NCBI GenBank assembly: GCA_964202905.1
Contig: CAXNJO010000002.1
Span: forward strand, 448,001-512,000
Direction of reading: 5' to 3'
DNA: 64,000 nucleotides
DNA from: Polyangiales bacterium
Lineage (GTDB): Bacteria > Myxococcota_A > Polyangia > Polyangiales > JADJQN01
Shown here: piece after piece, positions 13,237 through 33,830 of the stretch
How the letters are laid out: each line of letters opens with the position of its first letter
Position numbering within the stretch: the stretch's first letter is position 1
The notes under the pieces: model-generated
Told to the model about the DNA's origin: nothing
Database searches by the model: none
The model's input: only the letters and a program-made list of their open reading frames with translations
Program-made: the position numbers and the translations under genes

Positions 13237-14472
13237 ATGCCCCGTCCCGCTCCCGTGCTGGATCGCCCCCTTCGACGCGCCGCGACGCTCCTGCTGGCCG
13301 CGTCCCTCACGACCCTCGGCGCGGCCTGCGGAGGCTCGGATGCGCCGACCGGCGCCGATGGCGGCCCCCGTGATCTCGGGGGCGTGCGCGACGCGGGCCC
13401 CGAGTTGGACGCAGGCGCAGACAGCGACGCGGGCTCGGGCATCGATGCCGGCGCAGACAGCGACGCAGGCGCAGACGGCGACGCAGGCGCAGACGGCGAC
13501 GCAGGCGCAGACGGCGACGCAGGCGCAGACGGCGACGCAGGCGCAGACAGCGACGCGGGCCCACCGCCCGACATCGACGCAGGCCCATCGCCCGACGGCG
13601 ACGCAGGTCCACCCGACGCCATCCCCGCGTGCCCCACCTTCGCCGACGCGGTCGAGCGCGCGCGCACGCCCTACGATCCGTTCTTCCCGAGCCGCAGCGT
13701 GCGTGAGGCGAGCGGCCTCGCCGAGAGCCGCCGCAACCCCGGCGTGCTCTGGCTGCACAACGACTCGGGCGGCGGTCCGCGCCTGTTCGCCGCGCGGATC
13801 GCGCCCGCCGGGACCGTGTTCTACGACCTCGCGGACGCCGGTGCGCGCGACTGGGAGGACATCGCCGTCGGCCCCGGCCCCGAAGCGGGCGTGTCCTATG
13901 TCTACGTCGGCGACATCGGCGACAACGGCGAGTCCCGCGCGAACATCGACGTCTACCGCGTCGCGGAGCCCGCCGTCGGCGCGGCCTCGGCGACGCCCCT
14001 CACGCTCACGGGCGTCGAGCGCTTCACGCTCGTCTACCCTGACCGCGCGCACAACGCCGAGACGCTCCTCGTCGACCCGCGCACTGGCGACGTGTTCGTC
14101 GTGGTCAAGAGCGGCTCGGGCGACTCGCCCGTCTACCGCGCCGCGGCCCCGCTCGCCGCGGGCACGACGACGCTCGAGCTCGTCGCGACGCTGCGTTTCG
14201 GGGCCGACCCGCTGCCTGGCAACGCGCTGACGACGGGCGGGGACATCTCCCCCGCGGGCGACGAGATCGCGATCCGCACCTACGACGCCGCCTATCTGTG
14301 GCGGCGCGCGCGCGGGGCGACCGTCGCCGAGGCGCTCGCCACCCCGCCGTGCCGCATCCCGCTGCGCCGCGAGACGCAGGGCGAGGCGCTCGGCTTCGCG
14401 GCGGATGGCAGCGGCTACTACTCGGTGAGCGAGGGGAACCTCGAGGTCGTCTCGTTCTACGCGCGGCGCTGA
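13237..14472 (+). CDS. Lipoprotein with DAGADG repeats and a beta-propeller-like domain
   Basis: LGAAC lipobox; [44 protein letters not shown]. Confidence 0.8.
13462..13557 (+). repeat. 18-bp coding tandem repeat (GACGCAGGCGCAGACGGC; DAGADG), about 5 copies
   Basis: Visible directly in the sequence. Confidence 0.85.
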
Positions 14473-14612
14473 CGCCCCCCCGCGACCGCCGCCGCGCCAC
14501 CGCAGCCCGGCCCGCTGCGACGCCGTGTCCCGTTGACGCAGCCCACGGACGCGTCCAGCTTCGCCGCGTGTCGCCGGCCGTCCCAGCCCCTGCGCGCAGC
14601 GCGCCGAGCGCC

Positions 14613-16487
14613 ATGGAGCTCGTCGGGGACCCCGCGCGCCACCTCGCGTTGCTGAAGGCGATCGCGCGGCGCACCGGGAACTCGGTCATCGTCACCGACC
14701 CCGCGGGCCACATCGAGTGGGTCAACGAAGGCTTCACCCGATTGACGGAGTTCCTGCCCGAGGAAGTGCTTGGCCGCCGCCCGGCGGAGCTGTTGCAGGG
14801 CCCCGATACCGAGCGTGCGACGCGCGCGCAGATGGCCGCCGCGATCGCGCTCGGGCTGCCGTTCGAAGTGGTCGTCCTCAACTACACGAAGTCGGGCCGG
14901 CAGTATTGGGTCCGCATCGAGGCCGAGCCCACGCGCGACGAGGAGGGCACGCTCACGGGTTTCATCGCGCTCGAGACGGACGTCACCGCGCAGCGCATCT
15001 CCGAGGCGCGCGAGGGCGTGACGAAGCGCATCGGCGACCTGCTCCTCATCTGCGACTCCATCGAGCGCGCCGCGCAGCACGTCGTCCGGGAGCTCTCGCG
15101 CACCCTCGACCTGCGTACGGCGCAGGTCTGGACGGTGACCCCCGGGCAGCCTCACCTGCACTACGTCGCCGGGGCCTGCGCCGACAACAGCGGGCAGGAG
15201 TGGCTCGACACGAGCGCGAACCGCACCTTCGCGCGCGGCACCGATTGGGTCGTCGGCGTCGGCGCGCCGGGCGTCGCGTGGGGCACCGCCGCGCCCTGCA
15301 TCAAGACGGACTTCTGGCAGTACGACAGCCGCGGGCAGCTCTCACGCCGTGCAGCCGCCGCGAAGCTCGCCGGGATCCGCACCGTCTGCGCGGTGCCGGT
15401 CCTCGGTCCCGAGGGCGTCATCGCTATCGTCGAGATCGGCGGCTCGCACAACTACCCGGGGAACGATCAGCTGCCCTCGCTCGTCGAGCGCGTCGCCCGT
15501 CAGCTCGGCGCGTCCATCGTGCAGCTGGAGAGCCGCCGCGCGTTCGAGGCGCTCTTCCGCCAGAGCCCCGACGCGCTGCTCGTCGTCGACGCGGAGGGCC
15601 TCGTGCAGCGCGCGAACGCCCGCGCCGTCGCGCTCTTCGGCGACGCGGTCGGGCAGCGGCTCGACGCGCTCCTCGCGGGCGGCGAGGCGCAGCTCTCGGC
15701 GGAGCGCCCCGCCTTCGGTGATCCCACACCGCTCCAGCAGCTCGCCGGCACGCGACCCGACGCGACGCGGTTCTCCGCGGAGGTCGCGATCTCGTCGACG
15801 ACCGCGACGGGCGCGCCGTCGAACATCGTCTCGGTGCGCGACCTGACGGAGCGGCACCTCGCGGAGGAGGCGCTGCGCCGCTCCCTCGAGGAGAAGGTCA
15901 CCCTCGTGCAGGAGGTGCACCACCGCGTGAAGAACAACCTGCAGATCATCTCGAGCCTCGTCTCGCTGCAGGCCGAGGACCTCGAGAGCGAGTCCGCGCG
16001 CGCCGCCCTGCGCGACACGTCGAACCGCATCCAGTCGATGGCCCTCGTGCACCAGCAGCTCTACGCCAACGACAACTTCGCGCGCATCGTCTTCGGGGAC
16101 TACGCGCGCGCGCTCTGCACCGCGCTGCACGTCTCGCTCGCGCCCGACGCCTCGCTGACCGTCGACGCCGACTTCGTCGAGACGACGGTGGAGCGCGCGG
16201 TCCCGGCGGGCCTCATCCTGAACGAGCTGCTCACGAACGCCTTCAAGCACGGCCACGCGCCAGGGCGCCGCGCGGCGATCCAGGTGCGCGTCGAGCGCCT
16301 CGAGGCGGGCTTCGCGTTCGTCGTCGCGGACGGGGGCCCGGCGTTCGGCGATCAGCCCGCGCGCAAGGGCTCGATCGGCCAGACGCTCATCCACGCGCTC
16401 GTTCGGCAGCTCCGCGCCAAGCGGACGTACACGCGCACCGCGACGGGCAACGAGGTCCGCGTCGAGCTGCCGAACGCGCTCGCCTGA
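14613..16487 (+). CDS. PAS-GAF-PAS sensor histidine kinase (HisKA_2 type)
   Basis: [12 protein letters not shown]...LQGPDT...[34 protein letters not shown]. Confidence 0.92.
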
Positions 16488-23324: not shown

Positions 23325-23984
23325 TCAGCCCTTCGCGAAGAGGCCGATCGGGCAGGTCACGCCCGTGCCGCCGATGCCGCAGTAGCCGTCCGGGTTCTTC
23401 GCGAGGTACTGCTGGTGGTAGTCCTCGGCGAAATAGAGCTCGGGGCGCGGGAGGATCTCGGTGGTGATGCGGCCGAAGCCCGAGGCGCGCAGCCGCTCCT
23501 GGTACGCGTCGCGTGACGCCTCGGCCCGCGCGCGCTCCTCGGCCGTCGCGAGGTAGAGGCCCGAGCGGTACTGCGTGCCGACGTCGTTGCCCTGCCGCAT
23601 GCCCTGCGCCGGATCGTGGTTCTCCCAGAAGACCTGCAGGAGCGCGTCGAAGGCGATCCGGCTCGGGTCGTACACGATCAGCGCGACCTCGTTGTGGCCC
23701 GTGCGGCCCGTGCAGACCTCGCGATACGTGGGGTTGGGCGTGAGCCCCGCGGCGTAGCCGACCGCCGTCGTGTAGACGCCGTCGAGCTTCCAGAAGATGC
23801 GCTCGACGCCCCAGAAACAGCCCATGCCGACGAGCAGCTCGGCGCTGCCTTCGGGGAAGGGGCCGACGAGCGGCGTCCCGAGCACGAAGTGCGACGCGGG
23901 GACGGGCATGCGCTCACTGCGGCCGGGCAGCGCCTGCGCGGCGGTTGGGATGCGGGCCTTCTCGGAGGAGGTGAAAAACGACAT
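23325..23984 (-). CDS. msrA: Peptide-methionine (S)-S-oxide reductase
   Basis: [46 protein letters not shown]. Confidence 0.97.
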
Positions 23985-24061
23985 TCGCGGGAATCTCGGT
24001 CCGGCGGAGGCGCATGGGAAGGGGCATCTGCCGCGCCCGGCGACGCGAACCCGCGCCGGGG

Positions 24062-25555
24062 TCAGCCTGCGCGTCGGCGCCGCACGAGGATCGCTGCGCC
24101 GCCGACTGCCCAGAGGGCGAGGAGCGGCGCGGTCCCCCGGCCCCCGCCTGCGCGGCAGCCGCAACGCCCGACGAGCGGCGCGTCCACGCTGCCGTCGGCA
24201 CGATCGCGGCCCCCACCGTCGCGCACCGCGCCAGCGTCGGCGCCGCCATCGGGCACGCCCGCGTCAGGCGGCGGGTCTTCCCCGCAGCGCGCGAGGGTCG
24301 AAGACGTCTCGACGCAGCCCCCGGTACAGGCGCGCTCCGCATACGCGCCGAGCGTGCAGACGCCGAGCGTCGCGCCGTCGCGACAGAACGCGCCATCCTC
24401 TGCGCCGAGCTCGGCGTTGCACAGGAGATGGACGCAGTGCGCCTGCGCGGGCGGTCCCGCCTCGCTGCACGTCGCGCCGTACACGCCGCAGTCGCCCTCG
24501 CTGAGGCGGCCGAGCTCGCAGGTCCCGATGCGCGTCGCGTCGAGACAGAAGCCCCCCTGCTCGCCGCCCTCGAGGTTCGCGGGGCAGTACGGGTGCACGC
24601 AATGCGCGAGGCCGCCCGCCGTCGAACAGGGCGCGCCGAAGAAACCGCAGTCCCCCGCGAGCACGGGTGCGCCCTCGCTGCACGACGTCGCGACGGTGCC
24701 CTCGCACGCCTGGAAATTGCGGTCTCCGCGGCAGAGCGGATCGATGTAGTCGGGGCAGTGCGGGGCCGCGCCGCTGCCGCTCGCGTAGAACGCGAGGTGG
24801 TTGCCCACGGTGCGCTCGGAGCCGTCGGACGGCCGGTTCTTCACGGCGCCGTTCACCACCATCGTGGAACTGCCGCCCCCATCGAGCGCGACCGCGTCGT
24901 GGGCGCCCTCGAGCGCCATCACGAAGGCGAGCTCGTCACAGGTCATGCCGGCCGCGCCCGCGCGTCGACCGTCGACGACCATCACGATCAGCGTGCGGTG
25001 ATCCTCGGTGAGCCCGAGCACGGTGCGCGGGTTGCGGTTCGTGCAGAGCGGATCGCCCGGGCTCCCGACGACGGCGCCGCGGTGCAGGAGCGTCGGATGA
25101 CCGCTCACGATCTCGCGCGCCCACGGCGGCGGCGTGCCCTCGAGGCCGTGGAGCGGGAAGTCCACGTGCGCGGAGCCAAACGCGATCGGCGCGACGTAGG
25201 TGTGGTTCGGCCCGCCCCAGGTCGCGCCGTCGTGCGCGGAGGGGCCATCGGTGTTGAACGCGCCGTCGAGGCTGAAGAAATCGCCGTTGATCGCGGCCTG
25301 CGCGCCGACGTCCGACGCGAAGCGGCTCACCCGGCGCCCGCGCTCGCCCTCCGCCGTGCCACGCACGCTCACGCCCGCCGCGCAGAGGTCGAGCCGCAGC
25401 ACCCACAGATCCTGCCCGCCCTCGACGTGGTGCTTCAGCGTGCCGCCCGCGAACGGCGTCGTGATCTCGTCGTACGCGCGCGCCTCCGCGGCGAAGGACA
25501 GCCCGGCGACGAGACCGGCGACGACGATGGACGGCAGCGTGTGACGCACGCGCAA
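24062..25555 (-). CDS. Phosphodiester glycosidase (NAGPA) family protein with Cys-rich region and MYXO-CTERM-like tail
   Basis: [41 protein letters not shown]-terminal GC-TM-RRRR. Confidence 0.87.
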
Positions 25556-25664
25556 CAGAATCGCGCTCCGGCCCCGATGTCAACGCGCGGCGTCCCGGCT
25601 GCGCCGGCCCGCGGCGACGGATCGGCGCCGACAGGCCCGAACGAGAAGCGCTAACGTCGCGCGC

Positions 25665-26915
25665 ATGGCGAACGGGAAGATCGCATTCGCGATGGTGGGG
25701 CTGCCGGCGCGCGGCAAGACGTACATGGCGCGCAAGATCGCGCGCTACCTCTCGTGGCTCGGCCACGACACGCGCGTCTTCAACGTCGGCAGCTACCGTC
25801 GCAACCGCATCGGGGCGCGGCAGACGCACGAGTTCTTCGACCCCGAGAATCCATCGGGCGCCGAGGCGCGTCGGCAGCTCGCGCTCGCGGCGCTCGACGA
25901 CATGCTCGGCTGGCTGCGCTCGGGCGGCGACGTCGCCATCTACGACGCCACGAACAGCTCGCGCGCGCGACGCGACCTGCTGCGCGCGGCCTGCGCGGAG
26001 CGCGGCGTCGAGCTCGTCTTCGTCGAGTCGGTCTGCGACGACGCCACGATCGTCGACGCCAACGTGCGCCTCACCAAGGCGCGCTCGCCCGATTACGCCG
26101 ACGTCGACGCCGACACCGCCGTGCGCGACTTCCTCGCGCGCATCCACCACTACGAGCACAGCTACCAGACGGTGAGCGACGACGAGGGCGCGTACGTCCG
26201 CGTGATCGACGTCGGGCGCAAGGTCGAGGCCCACCGCATCCGCGGCTCGATCGCGGCGCGGGTCGTGTACTTCCTGCTCAACCTGCACATCCAGCCCCGC
26301 AGCTTCTGGCTCACGCGACACGGCGAGAGCGAGGCGAACGTCCTCGGCGCGATCGGCGGCGACACGGGCCTCAGCCTTCGCGGCCAGGGCTACGCCGACG
26401 CGCTCGCGGAGTTCGTGCACGCGCGTGTCGCGCCGGGCGGCTCCCCCCTCGTCGTCTGGACGAGCACCCTGCAGCGCACCATCGCGACCGCCGCGCCGCT
26501 CGGCCTGCCGACGACGCGCTGGAAGGCGCTCGACGAGATCGACGCGGGCCGCTGCGATGGGATGACCTACGCCGAGATCGCCGGGCAGATGCCCGAGGAG
26601 TGGGCCGCACGGCAGACGGACAAGTTCCGCTACCGCTACCCGCGCGGCGAGTCCTACGAGGACGTCATCACCCGCCTCGAGCCGATCCTCCTCGGCCTCG
26701 AGCGCGAGCGAACGCCCGTGCTCGTCGTCGCGCATCAGGCCGTCATCCGCGCGCTCTACGCCTACCTGCTCGATCGGCCCGCCGCCGAGTGCCCGCGCAT
26801 CGACGTGCCGCTGCACACCGTGCTCGAGCTGACGCCGACGGCCTACGGCTGCGACGAGAAGCGCTGGCCGCTCGCGCCCTCCCCGCTCGATCAGGAGGGC
26901 TTTCGCGCGGTGTGA
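25665..26915 (+). CDS. Bifunctional 6-phosphofructo-2-kinase / fructose-2,6-bisphosphatase (eukaryote-type PFKFB)
   Basis: MVGLPARGKT, FNVGSYRR, YDATNS, FVESVCDD, SPDY; then LTRHGES, WTSTLQRT, LDEIDAG, YRYPRGESY, AHQAVIR. Confidence 0.95.
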   Translation: MANGKIAFAMVGLPARGKTYMARKIARYLSWLGHDTRVFNVGSYRRNRIGARQTHEFFDPENPSGAEARRQLALAALDDMLGWLRSGGDVAIYDATNSSRARRDLLRAACAERGVELVFVESVCDDATIVDANVRLTKARSPDYADVDADTAVRDFLARIHHYEHSYQTVSDDEGAYVRVIDVGRKVEAHRIRGSIAARVVYFLLNLHIQPRSFWLTRHGESEANVLGAIGGDTGLSLRGQGYADALAEFVHARVAPGGSPLVVWTSTLQRTIATAAPLGLPTTRWKALDEIDAGRCDGMTYAEIAGQMPEEWAARQTDKFRYRYPRGESYEDVITRLEPILLGLERERTPVLVVAHQAVIRALYAYLLDRPAAECPRIDVPLHTVLELTPTAYGCDEKRWPLAPSPLDQEGFRAV

Positions 26916-26965
26916 GCGAGACGCGCTGCGCGTTTCCAGGGACGCGCGGCCTCCCGTGCCGCGAT

Positions 26966-29900
26966 TCAGTAGGTGACGAACTCCACCCCGTCGTTGGCCA
27001 GCGTGAAGTTCGTCGCGTTGCGACCGGGGCGGAAGTACGCCGCCGACCCGGCCGAGTCTTCGACACCCTGCGTGATGGTGCGCGACGAAGTCGGCAACGA
27101 CGTGGTGTGGATCTGGATGCGGTCGGTGGTCTCGAAGAGGATGATCTGCGTCGTCACCGGCGTGGACGTCGCGTAGTACGGCACGGAGATGTACGACACG
27201 ACGAACGTGCGGTTGGGCGCCGCGCCGCGCGTCTGATAGCGGATGGTCCCGCTGCTCGTGAGGCTCAGATCCGTCCACGCGGCCGCGATGAGGTCGTCCG
27301 TAAAGTCGAAGGACGGAATCGTGGACCCCGAGCAGCAACCCGAACCGATGCCCGTGTCGAAGCTCAGGAAGCCGTTCGAGGAGATCGACACCTGCGTGTA
27401 GGTGTTGTTGAAGAAGCGGAAGCTGAACCCGATCGGGATCGCTCCGGTGGTGCCGTCGTCGGTGGCCGCGAGGACTGACGTCCCCGTCGTCGCGACGGGC
27501 GCGAAGGGGATCGCGTAAGCGCCCGGCGTCGTGACCGAGCAGCCCTCGTCGGTGCTGCCGTTGCAGTTGTCGTCGGCGCCGTTCGCGCAGACCTCGGCCG
27601 TGGAGCTCGTCGCGTCGTTGCAGACGAGCGCCCCGCCCGAGCACACGCGGGTGCCCTCGACGCAGAGGTCCGTGTCCGCGCCATCGCACGGCGCACCGCC
27701 GCCCGGATTGCCATCGTCGGTGATGCCATTGCAGTCGTCATCGAGGCCGTTGCACGTCTCGACGCTCGTGCCGGTCACGTCGTTGCAGACGAGCGTGCCG
27801 CTCGCGCAGGTGCGCGTGCCCTCGTTGCAGACGTCGCCGTCCGACCCGTCGCAGGGCGTGCCGCCGCCGGGGTTGCCGTCGTCGATGACGCCGTTGCAGT
27901 CGTCGTCGGCGCCGTTGCACGCCTCGAGCGACGTCCCCGTCGTGTCGCTGCACACGAGGGCGCCGCCCGTGCAGGTGCCGACGCCCTCGTTGCAGAGGTC
28001 ACCGTCACCCCCGTCGCACGCCGCGCCACCGCCCGGATTGCCATCGTCGACGATGCCATCGCAGTCGTCGTCGGTGCCGTTGCAGCTCTCTGCGACCGGG
28101 CCGACCCAGCCCGCGCATGTGCCCCACGTCGAACCGACGCCGCCCGAGCCCGAGACGCACGTCTGCGCGCCGGTCACGCACGCGCCGACCCCGCTGGTAC
28201 CCGACGAGCCGCCGTAGCAGCTGCGCGTCGCGCCGAGTGAGCAGTCGCAGCCCTCGTCCGTGGCGCCGTTGCAGTTGTCGTCGACTCCATTGCAGCTCTC
28301 GGTGTTGGAGCCCGTCGCGTCGTCGCAGACGAGCATGCCCGCCATGCAGCGGTTCACGCCCTCCTGGCAGCTGTCCGCGTCCGCGCCGTCGCACGCGCCG
28401 CCGTCCGCGCCGTCGTCGGCCGTGCCGTCGCAGTCGTCGTCGAGCCCGTTGCACACCTCCGTGCCCGGCAGCCCGCTCGACGCGCTGCACGTCGTCCCCG
28501 CGCCATCCGCGCGGCAGACGTACGCGCCCGTGCGCGCGCACCCGCCGACGCCGACCGTGCAGGGGCGGCCGAGCTCGGTGAAGGGCTCGTCCACGACTCC
28601 GTCGCAGTCGTCGTCGATCGCGTTGCACAGCTCGGTGCCGGGCGCCGCCGCGCCCACGCTGCACGTCGTGCCGCTGCCGTCCGAGCGGCAGACGACCGAC
28701 CCGGTGCGCGCGCACGCGCCGACGCCCACCGAACACGCGCCGCCGAGCGAGAAGCCGTTGTCGACGGCGCCGTCGCCGTCGTCGTCGCAGGTGTTGCAGA
28801 ACTCGGTCGCGACGCAGCGGCCCCAGCCGCACGCGTCACCGCAGGTCTGGCTGCCGATCGTGCCGCAGCCGGGCACGACGCACGGCCGCGTCTCGCCCGC
28901 GCGGCACTCGACCGTGCTGCCCGGGCCGGGCTCGTCGATGCGACCGTCGCCATTGTCGTCGCAGCCGTTGCACGTCTCGGTCGGAGCGAGGCACGCGCCG
29001 AGACGGCACGCGCCGTTGCACGTCTGCGAGCCTCCCGTGCCGCACGTCGTCGTGCAGGTGCGCGCGCCCGAGCCGAGCGCGCATTGCATGCCGGGGCCGT
29101 CGTCGACGCCCACGGGGAACGCCGCGCCCCCGCCGGAGCAGTCGTTGTCGACACCGTCGCAGAGCTCCGCCGCGCCGGGGCGGATCGCGCGGTTGAGGTC
29201 GTCACAGTCGGCCCCCGACGCGCAACCGATCGCGGTGAAGCCGTCCCCGTCCGCGTCCGAGCCGCCCGCGACGCACATGCCCGGCTCCACGCAGGAGTCC
29301 GTCGTGCACGCGAGGCCGTCGCTGCAGTCGAGTCGCGCCCCCGCGACGCAGCCCATGCCAGGCGTCGTGCCCGTCACGTCGCAGCGCTCGGCGCCGTTGC
29401 ACACGAGGCCGTCCGAGCACGCCGCGTCGTTCGCGTCCTGGACGCAGGCGTCGGTCATCGCGTCACAGCGGCCGACGGAGCAGCCGATCGAGTCGCGGCA
29501 CTCGGGGGCCGTGCCCGACACACAGCCCGCCATCGCGTCGCAGCGCTCGGCGCCGTTGCAGAAGACCGCGTCGTCGCACGCCGCGGCCTCGGGGACCGCG
29601 ACGCAGCCGCCGGTCATCTCGTCGCAGACGTCGCGCGTGCAAGCCACGGCGTCGTCGCAGGCGAGCGCGGCGCCCGACACGCAGCCCTCGCCGTCGGCGC
29701 CTGCGCCGCCGGGCACGCAGGTCTCGGCCCCGTTGCAGACGAGCCCGTCGTCGCACGCGGTGTCCGCGGGTGCGCTCGCGCACGCGTCGCGGGTCGCGTC
29801 GCACGCGTCCACGGTGCAGGCAAAACCGTCGTCGCAATTGGGCACGTCCCCGCGCCGACAGCCGAACGCCGGGTCGCAGCGCTCGGCGCCGTTGCAGAAG

Positions 29901-30332
29901 ACACCATCGTCACAGGTGGCATCCGATTCGCAGGGCCGCGGCGCCGTGCAGCCGTCGATGCGGTCGCACATCAGCCCCACCGGGCACCGCGTGTCGTCCG
30001 CCGCCGCAGAGCACGCGCCCGTGCCGGGATCGCAGGCGTCCGCCGTGCATCCGATCGCGTCGTCGCAGACGACGGGCGTGCCGGGAACGCACACGCCGGC
30101 GATGCACGTCTCGCGCCCGTTGCAGGCGTCGAGGTCGTCGCAGGCGGCTGTCGTCCGCGCAGGTCGGCCCGGCGTCCCGGTCGCCGGGGTTCGCGTCGAC
30201 CTCGGCGTCGAGCGCCGCGTCCGCGGCCGGCCCTGCGTCGAACGCGCGCCGTGGCGGCACACCGCTCGCGCAGGCCGCGAGAGCGCCCGTCGCGAGGGCG
30301 AGCGCCGCCATCGAACACAGCACGTGGAACAT
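26966..30332 (-). CDS. Large Cys-rich lipoprotein (CDDG/CNG and MopE-like repeats) with C-terminal NIDO-like domain (frameshift near 30150)
   Basis: ALAAC lipobox in the 29910..33893 frame; many ExCNGxDDDCxG repeats; DDGTTGAIPIGFSFRFFNNTYTQVSISSNGFLSF. Confidence 0.85.
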
Positions 30333-30497: not shown

Positions 30498-33400
30498 ATG
30501 ACTCCCACCGTGCGTCCCGCCTCGATCTGGCTCGCCGTGCTGATCACGACCGCAGCCGCCTGCGGAGGCGCAGGGGATTCCGGGGGCGGCGGCATGACGC
30601 GCGCCGACGGCGGCCCGCCGCGCACCGACGCGGGGCCGACGGGCATGGACGGCAGCACGATCGGGGAGGACGGAGGCGGCTCCGGGGCGGACGGCGGTGA
30701 CGTGGACGCGGGCCCGACCGACGAACTCTGCAACGGCGTGGACGACGACGCGGACGGCCGCGTCGACGAAGGCTGCGGCTGCGAGTCCGGCACCACGCAG
30801 GCCTGCTGGCCGGGCGACCCGTCGCTCGCGGGCGTCGGCCTCTGTCTGCTCGGACGCCAGACCTGCGTGGACACCGGCGCCGAGTTCGGCACCTGGGGCG
30901 CGTGCATCGGGGCCGAGCCGCCGGGCACGGAGGCGTGCGACGCGCGCGACAACGACTGCGACGGCGTCGTCGACGACGGCTGCGACTGCACGGCGGCCGA
31001 GACGCGCCCCTGCTACGAGGGTCCCGCGGGCACCCTCGGCATCGGAGCGTGCCGCGGCGGCACGGAGCGCTGCGCGTCGGGCGCGGGCGGCATCGGCACC
31101 GCATGGGGAACGTGCGCGGGCGCCGTGCTCCCCGCTACGGAGCTGTGTGACGGCATCGACAACGACTGCAACGGCGCCGTCGACGAGGGCTGCGGCTGCA
31201 CCGACGGCACCGCGCGCGATTGCTACACCGGCCCAGCGGGGACGGAGGGCGTGGGCCTCTGCCGCGCGGGTCGGCAGTACTGCTCGGTCGACGCGACGGG
31301 CCTCGCCGTGTGGGGCGCGTGCGACGGCGTCGCGCTGCCCGGGGCGGACACGTGCAACGGCATCGACGACGACTGCGACGGCACGGCCGACGAGGACTGC
31401 CTCTGCCCGCCCGGCTCCGTGCGCAGCTGCTACGAGGGCCCCGCCGGGACGCGCGGCATCGGCCTCTGCCGCGCGGGCACGCAGGCGTGCACGCTCGTGA
31501 CGGGCGGCGCGGGCTCGGATTGGGCCGCGTGCACCGGCGAGCGCCTCCCGAGCGAGGAGCTCTGCAACGGCACCGACGACGACTGCGACGGCCTCCTCGA
31601 CGAGGGCTGCTCGTGCCGGCTCGGCGAGACGCGCAGCTGCTACTCGGGCCCGGCCGGCTCGGTCGGCTACGGCATGTGCCGCGCGGGCACGCAGACCTGC
31701 GCCGCGGGCAGCGACGGGTCGCCGGGCTGGGGCCCGTGTGGCGGCGAGCGCACGCCCGACCCCGAGGTCTGCTTCGATGGTCTCGATGGCGACTGCGACG
31801 GCGTGGTCGACGACGGCTGCGTGTGCCGCGAGGGCACCCCGCGCGGCTGCTACGCCGGCCCCGCCGAGACGCGCGGCGTCGGCCTGTGCACCGACGGCGT
31901 GCAGACGTGCGCGCTCGCGAGCGGCGGCGCGGGCGCGGACTGGGGCACCTGCACCGGCGGCCGGCTGCCGGCGGGCGAGCTCTGCGACGGCCTCGACAAC
32001 GACTGCGACGGCACCGCCGACGAGGGCTGCGACTGCCGCCCCGGCGAGCGGCGCGGCTGCTACACGGGCCCCGCGGGCACCGACGGCGTCGGCATCTGCG
32101 CGGGCGGCGAGCAGACCTGCGACGTGCGCCCCGACGGCACCGCGAGCTGGAGCGCCTGCGCGGGCGCGGTCCTGCCCGGCACGGAGGCGTGCAACGGCCG
32201 CGACGACGACTGCGACGGCCTCAACGACGAGGGCTGCGAGTGCGACGTCGGCGCGACGCGCGCGTGCTATCCGGGCGCGGCGGCCACGCGCAGCGTCGGC
32301 CTGTGCGCGGACGGCGTGCAGAGCTGCGTCGGCTCCGCGTCCGGCTCGAGCTGGGCGGCGTGCACCGGCGCCGTCGAGCCCGCGCTCGAGGTGTGCGACG
32401 GCCGCGACAACGACTGCAACGGCGTCGTCGACGAGGGCTGCGGCTGCACGCCGCGCACGACACGCAGCTGCTACGCGGGGCCCGCGGGCACGCCGGGCGT
32501 CGGCCTCTGCCGCGAGGGCGTGCAGACCTGCGCGCTCTCGGCGGATGGCACGACGTCGGCGTGGGGCGACTGCGCCGGCTCCGCGCTGCCCGCACCCGAG
32601 CTCTGCAACGGCGCCGACGACGACTGTGACGGCGTCATCGACGACGGCTGCGCGTGCGTGCCGGGTGTCACGCGCTCCTGCTACGAGGGCCCCGCGGGGA
32701 CGGCGCGCGTCGGCCTCTGCCGTGATGGCAGCCAGCTGTGCCTCTCGGGCGCGGGCGGCGTCGGCTCGAGCTGGGGCACGTGCATCGGCTGGCTCGGCCC
32801 CGCGACGGAACTCTGCGACGGCGCCGACAACGACTGCGACGGCGTGCCCGACGAGACCTGCGCGTGCGCGATGGGCACGTCGCGCGGCTGCTACTCGGGC
32901 TCGCCCGCGACGCGCAGCGTCGGCGTGTGCCGCGACGGCGCGCAGATGTGCTTCTTCTCCGGCGGCAGCGCGGGATGGGGCGCCTGTGCGGGCGAATCGC
33001 TGCCCGGCGTCGAGTCCTGCAACGGCCTCGACGACGACTGCGATGGCATCGTGGACGATGGTGTCTGCTCGGTGGCGCCGCTCGCGATGTGCCCGGCGCC
33101 CGCGACCACGCGCCCGCTCGTCCCGGTGACGCTGACCGGCAACGGCAGCGATCCGGACGGCGGCGTCATCGCCGCGTGGCGCTGGGAGCTCGTCTCGACG
33201 CCCGTCGGCGCGACGGGCACGATCTCCGCCCCGAGCGCGCGCACGACGCAGTTCACCCCGAACCTCGTCGGCGTGTACACGCTGCGTCTCACCATCACGG
33301 ACGATGAGGGTCAGACGGCGACGTGCACCACCACCGTGACGGCCACGGGCGAGGGCATCCGCGTCGAGGTCACGTGGAACACCGCGACCGACATCGACAC

Positions 33401-33830
33401 GCACATGCTCCGCCGCGCGGGCGGCACGGGCTGGTTCAACAGCCCGAACGACTGCTACTACAGCAACCGCACGCCGCTCTGGGACGCCGCCGGCACCGCC
33501 GACGACCCGCGCCTCGACATCGACGACACCAACGGCTTCGGCCCCGAGAACATCAACATCGACGTCCCCGTGACCGGCTCCACCTACGGCGTCGGCATCC
33601 ACTACTACTCGGGGACGCCGGCGACCTCGGTCGTGGTGAAGATCTACTGCGGCGACATCTCGACCACGCCCGTGCGCACCCTGACGCGTACGCTGACCGT
33701 CGGCGGGGCCGGGTCGGAGTCGAACGACTTCTGGCGCGTCGCCGACGTCGTCTGGAACGGCGGCGACTCGTGCACCGTCAACACGATCAACACGCTCACG
33801 ATCGCGTCGACGGCGCGCACCTCGCCTTGA
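30498..33830 (+). CDS. Large Cys-rich repeat lipoprotein with PKD-like and YfaP/DUF2135-like C-terminal domains
   Basis: AAAC lipobox; 11 units of about 70 aa plus a partial unit; LTGNGSDPDG...GVYTLRLTITDDEG; VTWNTATDIDTH...LDIDDTNGFGPENI. Confidence 0.9.
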   Translation: MTPTVRPASIWLAVLITTAAACGGAGDSGGGGMTRADGGPPRTDAGPTGMDGSTIGEDGGGSGADGGDVDAGPTDELCNGVDDDADGRVDEGCGCESGTTQACWPGDPSLAGVGLCLLGRQTCVDTGAEFGTWGACIGAEPPGTEACDARDNDCDGVVDDGCDCTAAETRPCYEGPAGTLGIGACRGGTERCASGAGGIGTAWGTCAGAVLPATELCDGIDNDCNGAVDEGCGCTDGTARDCYTGPAGTEGVGLCRAGRQYCSVDATGLAVWGACDGVALPGADTCNGIDDDCDGTADEDCLCPPGSVRSCYEGPAGTRGIGLCRAGTQACTLVTGGAGSDWAACTGERLPSEELCNGTDDDCDGLLDEGCSCRLGETRSCYSGPAGSVGYGMCRAGTQTCAAGSDGSPGWGPCGGERTPDPEVCFDGLDGDCDGVVDDGCVCREGTPRGCYAGPAETRGVGLCTDGVQTCALASGGAGADWGTCTGGRLPAGELCDGLDNDCDGTADEGCDCRPGERRGCYTGPAGTDGVGICAGGEQTCDVRPDGTASWSACAGAVLPGTEACNGRDDDCDGLNDEGCECDVGATRACYPGAAATRSVGLCADGVQSCVGSASGSSWAACTGAVEPALEVCDGRDNDCNGVVDEGCGCTPRTTRSCYAGPAGTPGVGLCREGVQTCALSADGTTSAWGDCAGSALPAPELCNGADDDCDGVIDDGCACVPGVTRSCYEGPAGTARVGLCRDGSQLCLSGAGGVGSSWGTCIGWLGPATELCDGADNDCDGVPDETCACAMGTSRGCYSGSPATRSVGVCRDGAQMCFFSGGSAGWGACAGESLPGVESCNGLDDDCDGIVDDGVCSVAPLAMCPAPATTRPLVPVTLTGNGSDPDGGVIAAWRWELVSTPVGATGTISAPSARTTQFTPNLVGVYTLRLTITDDEGQTATCTTTVTATGEGIRVEVTWNTATDIDTHMLRRAGGTGWFNSPNDCYYSNRTPLWDAAGTADDPRLDIDDTNGFGPENINIDVPVTGSTYGVGIHYYSGTPATSVVVKIYCGDISTTPVRTLTRTLTVGGAGSESNDFWRVADVVWNGGDSCTVNTINTLTIASTARTSP

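Follow-up and report, generated by a model that had tools for sequence, protein, structure and literature searches.

A 64,000-nucleotide window of the genome of a Polyangiales bacterium (assembly GCA_964202905.1, contig CAXNJO010000002.1, positions 448,001 to 512,000) carries a gene predicted to encode a 6-phosphofructo-2-kinase/fructose-2,6-bisphosphatase (PFK-2/FBPase-2), a bifunctional enzyme that would both make and hydrolyse fructose-2,6-bisphosphate (Fru-2,6-P2). The gene (25665..26915, plus strand) starts with ATG and is an intact open reading frame (ORF) of 416 aa, in which a kinase domain (6PF2K, PF01591; residues 3–211, 25671..26297, plus) is fused to a histidine phosphatase domain, FBPase-2 (His_Phos_1, PF00300; residues 214–401, 26304..26867, plus). 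A sequence-only reading of the window had reported this ORF together with a set of kinase and phosphatase motifs, and all of them were located in the translation. The kinase half holds the Walker A motif GLPARGKT (residues 12–19), DATN (94–97), ESVC (121–124) and SPDY (141–144), and the phosphatase half holds RHG (218–220) with His219, WTSTLQRT (265–272), LDEID (289–293) and AHQA (356–359). The profile scan that the same reading had proposed found both domains, PF01591 with 243.5 bits (E 2.1e-72; cut-off 27; profile positions 11–223 of 223) and PF00300 with 135.5 bits (E 2.3e-39) over residues 214–401.

A search against solved structures aligned residues 3–397 in a single stretch with residues 33–428 of human PFKFB3 (4d4j/2axn, E 2.3e-126). 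Human, rat and bovine structures of PFKFB1, PFKFB2 and PFKFB4 were nearly as good, the four animal isozymes (2axn/4d4j, 1k6m, 5htk, 1bif) ranging from E 1e-120 to 1e-126. The rat liver and testis enzymes gave E 1e-121 to 1e-125 and the isolated rat FBPase-2 domain (1c7z, 1fbt) E 1e-65. Chance could not produce matches of this strength. The order of the domains is the same as in the animal isozymes, and the Walker A and B motifs, the residues of the fructose-6-phosphate (F6P) site, the His of the RHG motif, the Glu and the second His are shared with them. The N terminus of the protein corresponds to PFKFB3 position 31–33, and the C terminus lies about 19 residues past PFKFB3 position 428 of 520. 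Unlike the animal isozymes, the myxobacterial protein lacks the N-terminal (about 30 aa) and C-terminal (about 90 aa) regulatory extensions with their phosphorylation sites. The limits of the PFKFB3 alignment thus bear out the absence of long tails noted earlier, and make animal-style protein-kinase control unlikely. The Pfam domains, their fused order, the colinear full-length match and the active-site residues all agree, and at the level of sequence the assignment to the PFKFB family is secure.

The conservation of both active sites was counted over 144 aligned bacterial sequences (P0001–P0121 and 23 translated from loci), with positions assigned through the PFKFB3 alignment. In the kinase half K18, R45, R69, D94, T96, K138, R159 and Y163 are present in all 144 sequences, as are R218, H219, N225, R271, E291, Y302, R316, K320, Y331, H357 and R362 in the phosphatase half. 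Four positions are nearly invariant: T19 and Q358 (142/144 each), and N97 and R102 (143/144 each). Variation is seen within the ESVCDD motif at two positions of lesser importance, C124 (125/144) and D125 (21/144). K18, R45, R69, D94, T96, R102, K138, R159 and Y163 are also identical to PFKFB3. Among these we take R45, R69, T96, R102, K138, R159 and Y163 to be F6P-site and catalytic residues of the kinase, F6P being presumably bound by all of them except K138. R316, K320 and Y331 presumably bind the 6-phosphate in the phosphatase, whose catalytic triad we take to be the RHG His, the second His and the Glu. Since all the catalytic and substrate-binding positions that were checked are conserved in 142–144 of the 144 sequences, both activities appear to be under selection. 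Position 271 is Arg in every bacterial sequence and Ser in PFKFB3, where the Ser weakens the phosphatase. A more balanced enzyme would therefore be expected in the myxobacterium.

PF01591 was found above cut-off in 81 of 401 sampled Myxococcota genomes (a fifth) and in 16 of 41 relatives, both counts including the present genome. Some families are rich in carriers, such as f38 (28/29) and f36 (8/9, a count that takes in weak matches), and others have none, for example f41 (0/12) and f26 (0/6). In a word-indexed protein search 4526 of the 8000 candidates scored reached E<=1e-20, and among the matches listed 120 proteins of 405–432 aa are 62–94% identical to the query. When the 50%-identity representatives were searched exhaustively, 10316 of them passed E<=1e-3, 3690 passed E<=1e-10 and 1240 passed E<=1e-30. 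The top-scoring representative, P0122 (1069 aa, E 8e-171), consists of two tandem PFK-2/FBPase-2 units with two 6PF2K and two His_Phos_1 domains. The bacterial homologues, which the sequence-only reading had supposed to be scattered and possibly deposited already, are thus widespread, and they are indeed in the databases. The nearest named records are metagenome-assembled genomes (MAGs) of Polyangiaceae and Sandaracinaceae at 57–60% identity, and the annotation 6-phosphofructo-2-kinase/fructose-2,6-bisphosphatase is found in Polyangiaceae MAGs, Sorangium sp., Sandaracinus amylolyticus (on a 10.75-Mb contig) and Byssovorax. These deposited homologues, some of which carry this enzyme name in NCBI annotation, are about 400–430 aa long, have the same architecture at 52–94% identity and fall into one clade with the protein of the window, from which they show no substantive difference. 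Judged by its sequence, the gene is one more orthologue of a deposited and partly annotated bacterial branch of PFK-2/FBPase-2, and its novelty as a sequence is nil.

Two more clusters of the same architecture, with 339 and 182 members, are present in the ESM Atlas, which gives the commonest taxon as Thermodesulfobacteriota. A protein search from P0140 returned only names of the kind 'Deltaproteobacteria bacterium' and 'Myxococcales bacterium', so the name Thermodesulfobacteriota comes from the Atlas taxa alone. We regard these clusters as a lead. They are consistent with a remark in a 2022 paper (PMC9721465), which describes Fru-2,6-P2 as absent from bacteria save Desulfovibrio desulfuricans and cites Rider et al. 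2004. No experimental study of a bacterial PFK-2/FBPase-2 was found in the literature searched, where subscription journals are largely missing, and a text search of a 2025 review of the evolution of prokaryotic glycolysis (PMC12525153) found no mention of Fru-2,6-P2. The physiology of the enzyme in bacteria looks to be unstudied.

Candidate targets of Fru-2,6-P2 are present in the genome. There is a single gene of the PF00365 family of phosphofructokinases (PFK; L025:1465-2805, 446 aa), in a search that covered this family, with PfkB-type and ADP-dependent kinases outside its scope. PMC12203962 gives as signatures of pyrophosphate (PPi)-dependent PFKs the motif GGDD, the motif PKTIDXD and, four positions past the second Asp, a residue larger than Gly, and adds that PKTIDXD by itself is not diagnostic. 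The PFK of this genome has GGDDTLKT and PKTIDND and the larger residue, and thus carries all three of these signatures as given there. Its best match in the PDB is the PPi-PFK of Trichomonas (9dqm, E 1e-34). No NCBIfam equivalog cut-off was reached, the best model being NF041103 PFKA_PPi_Ttgales (240 vs 550 bits), so that only the motifs indicate which phosphoryl donor is used. The long plant PFP type is excluded (TIGR02477, 125 bits vs a cut-off of 588). On the same contig (C11 of G000), an ORF at L025:52-1455 (plus) ends 10 bp before the start of the PFK gene, and by eye it resembles the C-terminal portion of a biotin-dependent acyl-CoA carboxylase.

The genome furthermore has one class I fructose-1,6-bisphosphatase (FBPase; L026:1453-2487), recognised by NF006778 with 471.7 bits (cut-off 368) and matching PDB 2gq1 with E 5e-103 and mammalian FBP1 with about 1e-90. 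No GlpX was found in the genome search, and a pyruvate kinase gene is present. In plants Fru-2,6-P2 activates PPi-PFK and inhibits the cytosolic FBPase. The plant set of a PPi-PFK and an FBPase matches the set in this genome, although the PFK here is not of the long plant type. Activation of plant PPi-PFKs by Fru-2,6-P2 is also stated in PMC12203962.

Phylogenetic profiles were drawn from the same 401 Myxococcota genomes, with genome-level statistics that ignore kinship. Of the 81 genomes with 6PF2K, 73 have a class I FBPase, compared with 139 of the 320 that lack 6PF2K (odds ratio 11.9, naive Fisher p 2e-15). With the PFK of this genome as query, a match to the PFK family at E<=1e-20 was obtained in 68 of the 81 carriers and in 310 of the 401 genomes overall.

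Gene neighbourhoods were compared at 81 loci, namely the window and 80 other 6PF2K-positive genomes, with about 5.5 kb on each side as far as the contigs allow. At seven of the 81 loci a divergent gene of the PFK family adjoins the homologue, with about 80–310 bp between the ends of the alignments; these loci represent three genera in two families. The paired PFKs of G100 and G159 (family f55, genus g121) and of G268 (f49, g112) have GGDD and PKTIDND. Those of G125, G179, G204 and G243 (f55, g136; loci L097, L099, L104 and L102) have GGDG and PKTIDND, and thus mix an ATP-type with a PPi-type motif. A mixed GGDG/PKTIDXD-type signature is described in PMC12203962 for the 'PPi-like' ATP-dependent PFK of trypanosomes. 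By their motifs, the paired PFKs of g136 may be bacterial examples of a switch of the phosphoryl donor. All-against-all clustering of 2955 flanking ORFs from the 81 loci gave, besides PFK, no metabolic neighbour that recurs across families. Class I FBPase is thus the most consistently co-present candidate target, and PFK is the sole physically paired gene, in a minority of lineages.

What we observed is that the gene is intact and belongs to the family, that its two active sites are conserved, that candidate targets are present and that there are associations at the level of genomes. With a probability of roughly 0.6 we interpret them as pointing to a functional bifunctional PFK-2/FBPase-2, whose Fru-2,6-P2 would be made and hydrolysed to act at the node of F6P and fructose-1,6-bisphosphate. 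In this scheme the N-terminal kinase would transfer the gamma-phosphate of ATP to C-2 of F6P, giving Fru-2,6-P2, and the C-terminal histidine phosphatase would remove the 2-phosphate via a phospho-His219 intermediate. As the protein has no phosphorylatable tails at either end, the balance of the two activities is probably set by the levels of metabolites, above all of F6P, and the level of Fru-2,6-P2 would then report the availability of hexose phosphates. The better-supported target is the single class I FBPase, which Fru-2,6-P2 would inhibit; the single PFK with PPi-type motifs is possibly modulated as well. The outcome would be that a futile cycle is prevented and that the cell can switch between the use of sugars and gluconeogenesis. 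The proposal that Fru-2,6-P2 is both made and degraded is strengthened by the conservation of the two active sites, by the presence of a class I FBPase and of a PFK with PPi-type motifs, and by the pairing with PFK at seven of 81 loci.

A number of observations weigh against this interpretation. The enzyme activities, the cellular Fru-2,6-P2 and the responding enzyme are all inferred, and the roles of the active-site residues were assigned after the PFKFB literature. The neighbours in the window, a NAGPA-like gene, MsrA and a MopE-repeat gene, are unrelated to sugar metabolism, and in the comparison with genome G002 of the same family only the PFK-2/FBPase-2 gene itself is shared. An FBPase adjoins the gene at none of the 81 loci, and its PFK partners in other genera share no more than 33–35% identity with the PFK of this genome. 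Coupling to the present type of PFK was rejected, as its orthologues (E<=1e-100) are found in 18 of the 81 carriers and in 75 of the 320 other genomes (odds ratio 0.93). The association with FBPase at the level of genomes is inflated by relatedness. At the level of families (30 itemised), six of seven with strong 6PF2K matches are FBPase-positive compared with nine of 23 others (Fisher p=0.08). Finally, no class I FBPase is seen in eight of the 81 carriers of 6PF2K.

The alternative that survives best is that Fru-2,6-P2 is made and degraded and acts beyond PFK and FBPase, on pyruvate kinase or on some other sensor or regulator, or else that the phosphatase serves mainly to destroy Fru-2,6-P2 acquired from eukaryotic prey or substrates. 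In trypanosomatids the target of Fru-2,6-P2 is pyruvate kinase, an enzyme that this genome also encodes. The lack of co-occurrence with the present type of PFK is in line with such a role, as are the eight carriers devoid of class I FBPase and 13 of the 81 in which no PFK-family match was obtained at E<=1e-20. Furthermore, the bacterial PPi-PFKs characterised so far are all non-allosteric according to PMC12203962. However, conservation is just as strict at the kinase site as at the phosphatase site, contrary to what a mere scavenger would be expected to show, and the PFK pairing together with the 90% overlap with class I FBPase favours the classical node. No alternative receptor was identified. 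We hold this explanation to be unlikely, though more plausible than the others.

Very unlikely, in our view, is that the enzyme acts on another ketose phosphate or bisphosphate, such as a derivative of sedoheptulose or glucose, and that Fru-2,6-P2 is not its physiological product. The substrate has been assigned from sequence, and an NCBIfam scan gave 0/14 matches at cut-off, with hits to generic histidine-phosphatase models only and no bacterial equivalog for the bifunctional enzyme. The label given to homologues by JGI is merely 'broad specificity phosphatase PhoE/predicted kinase', and some bacterial PPi-PFKs also accept sedoheptulose-7-phosphate, as noted in PMC12203962. Against this, a pocket adapted to another substrate is hard to reconcile with the full-length match to PFKFB3 (E 1e-126). 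Moreover, the residues that we assume to bind F6P and the 6-phosphate are essentially invariant and identical to those of PFKFB3.

The gene has the character of its host. Its GC content is 0.717, with 0.71, 0.49 and 0.96 at the three codon positions, the third-position values of six neighbouring genes being 0.86–0.96, and its synonymous-codon fractions correlate with those of the same six genes at r=0.99, which upholds the host-like codon style reported before. The window corresponds to 448–512 kb of contig C2 in a genome of 5.68 Mb (19 contigs, 94.49% complete, 0.41% contaminated), where 6PF2K is matched by this single copy, located over 470 kb inside a large contig. Two public lake-water runs contain near-identical contigs (0–6 differences) that span the two ends of the gene: at the 5' junction record 4 of X1 (24803-25877) and record 12 of X2 (25420-26033), and at the 3' junction record 6 of X1 (26625-27068) and record 14 of X2 (26802-27008). 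The two runs belong to one study and possibly represent the source sample itself. The suspicion that the contig might be chimeric at this point thus found no support. Eukaryotic contamination, a chimeric join or a functionless, decaying relic of a recent transfer might be suspected from the exclusively eukaryotic nearest characterised relatives and the draft state of the genome, but such an artefact is in practice refuted by the composition, the position and bridged junctions, the low contamination, the invariant active sites, a gene tree that tracks family taxonomy, and the carriers elsewhere in the phylum, among them the single-contig genomes G159, G183 and G040.

The bacterial sequences group together. 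A FastTree analysis of 133 core sequences puts the 33 known bacterial rows into one clade with two short unlabelled proteins (SH-like support 98), and in a quick IQ-TREE search (LG+C20 PMSF, 83 rows) 32 bacterial rows cluster with a Shimodaira-Hasegawa-type likelihood-ratio support (SH-aLRT) of 87 and a stem of 0.055. The unlabelled 539-aa protein P0123 falls inside the bacterial cluster in the IQ-TREE tree, from which its FastTree relatives were left out, and outside it in the larger FastTree tree. The plant protein P0286 was left out of the maximum-likelihood tree on account of split matches. Both trees are unrooted, and the eukaryote-like labels derive from Pfam architecture, few source names and the taxa of Atlas clusters. 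The nearest neighbours of the bacterial clade in both trees are long proteins, and an N-terminal AMPK1_CBM domain is present in nine of 82 that were scanned (P0125, P0128, P0134, P0136, P0142, P0143, P0160, P0169 and P0171), and their named relatives are Cafeteria roenbergensis and plant F2KP. The F2KP-type enzymes of plants, algae and stramenopiles, such as the CBM20 protein P0133 of Cafeteria roenbergensis and the Tanacetum F2KP P0286, have the same catalytic core, and core sequences of this type, most of them metagenome proteins presumed eukaryotic from their architecture, are among these nearest neighbours. Unlike them, the bacterial proteins carry no CBM or other N-terminal domain and have extensions of only 0–22 aa. 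The phylogeny suggested by the sequence-only reading thus delivered a single bacterial clade, whereas the sister group is weak (SH-aLRT 82–90) and the maximum-likelihood backbone low, with 29 of 80 branches below 80.

Within the bacteria the gene tree largely follows the families. Family labels change 16 times on the tree, compared with a minimum of 13 and a mean of 55 after shuffling, and f38 (26 rows) and f55 (nine rows) are each monophyletic with support of 97–98. Order-level labels are interleaved (eight changes vs a minimum of two). This tree omits L030, L036, L059 and L086 (4/81), which showed a stop in the coordinate-based extraction, an artefact at least in the case of G030, where the ORF is intact. 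We read this as one bacterial clade that would have been inherited mostly vertically within Myxococcota families, with many losses, and most probably a single ancient exchange with eukaryotes brought the enzyme to bacteria. Michels and Rigden are said to have described PFK-2/FBPase-2 in 2006 as near-universal in eukaryotes and patchy in bacteria, and from this distribution a transfer from a eukaryote to a bacterium is taken as the default direction.

In the opposite scenario, Fru-2,6-P2 signalling would not have been invented by eukaryotes. The fused enzyme would then have arisen in, or passed through, Myxococcota or Thermodesulfobacteriota, reached the ancestor of eukaryotes, and would still switch the node of PPi-PFK and class I FBPase in myxobacteria. 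We consider this speculation quite unlikely. A comparable proposal of bacterium-to-eukaryote transfer concerns the sterol synthesis of myxobacteria, as put forward in a preprint (bioRxiv 10.1101/2024.11.01.621555). If the scenario were true, some bacterial PPi-type PFKs or FBPases would be allosteric, contrary to current belief.

The PFK-2/FBPase-2 gene stands alone in the window, no operon being found around it. Upstream, a divergent intergenic region of 109 bp (25556..25664, by ORF coordinates) separates it from the NAGPA-like gene (24062-25555, minus), followed by MsrA, and presumably holds the promoter. A scan of 25300-27200, blind to other promoter types, gave no site of the sigma-70-type consensus. 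Downstream, a convergent gap of 50 bp (26916..26965, by ORF coordinates) leads to the MopE-repeat gene (26966-30262, minus), and no terminator-like hairpin was found in this gap in a scan of the same region. Among the 20 runs listed, no RNA data carry the gene. The MsrA ORF (23325-24164, minus) has about 109 residues before its PMSR domain (residues 110–261), and its TTG start is probably placed too far upstream. The MopE-repeat gene and the one at 30498-33830 (plus) are two very large divergent genes for Cys-rich proteins with MopE-type, putatively metal-binding repeats, one of which also has PKD/Big_9 domains, and many repeat-induced joints occur in the aligned contigs at 27.4–28.5 kb. Elsewhere in the window, 14298-16487 (plus) encodes a PAS-domain histidine kinase of the HisKA_2/HWE type, unrelated to PFK-2/FBPase-2.

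Among the 81 loci, proteins combining a Ser/Thr kinase with TPRs and sigma-54 activators also recur across families. Both families are very abundant in myxobacteria, and their recurrence was taken as chance. A neighbour with Dicty_CTDC domains, the 'Dictyostelium (slime mold) repeat', adjoins the homologue at five loci in four genera; one example is a 1199-aa protein in G069 (f38; L039:6073-9669, plus).

In textbooks and reviews Fru-2,6-P2 figures as a regulator of eukaryotes. The gene does not represent a new kind of system, and its sequences are public and partly annotated. A fifth of the sampled Myxococcota nevertheless carry a canonical enzyme with both sites invariant, almost always together with a class I FBPase, and in three genera head-to-head with a PFK. 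This conservation, the co-presence of FBPase and the pairing with PFK make Fru-2,6-P2 signalling in bacteria a concrete and cheaply testable hypothesis, for which cultured carriers exist in Sorangium and Sandaracinus. The enzyme would add one more eukaryote-like trait to the Myxococcota, and it bears on the flow of genes between this phylum and early eukaryotes.

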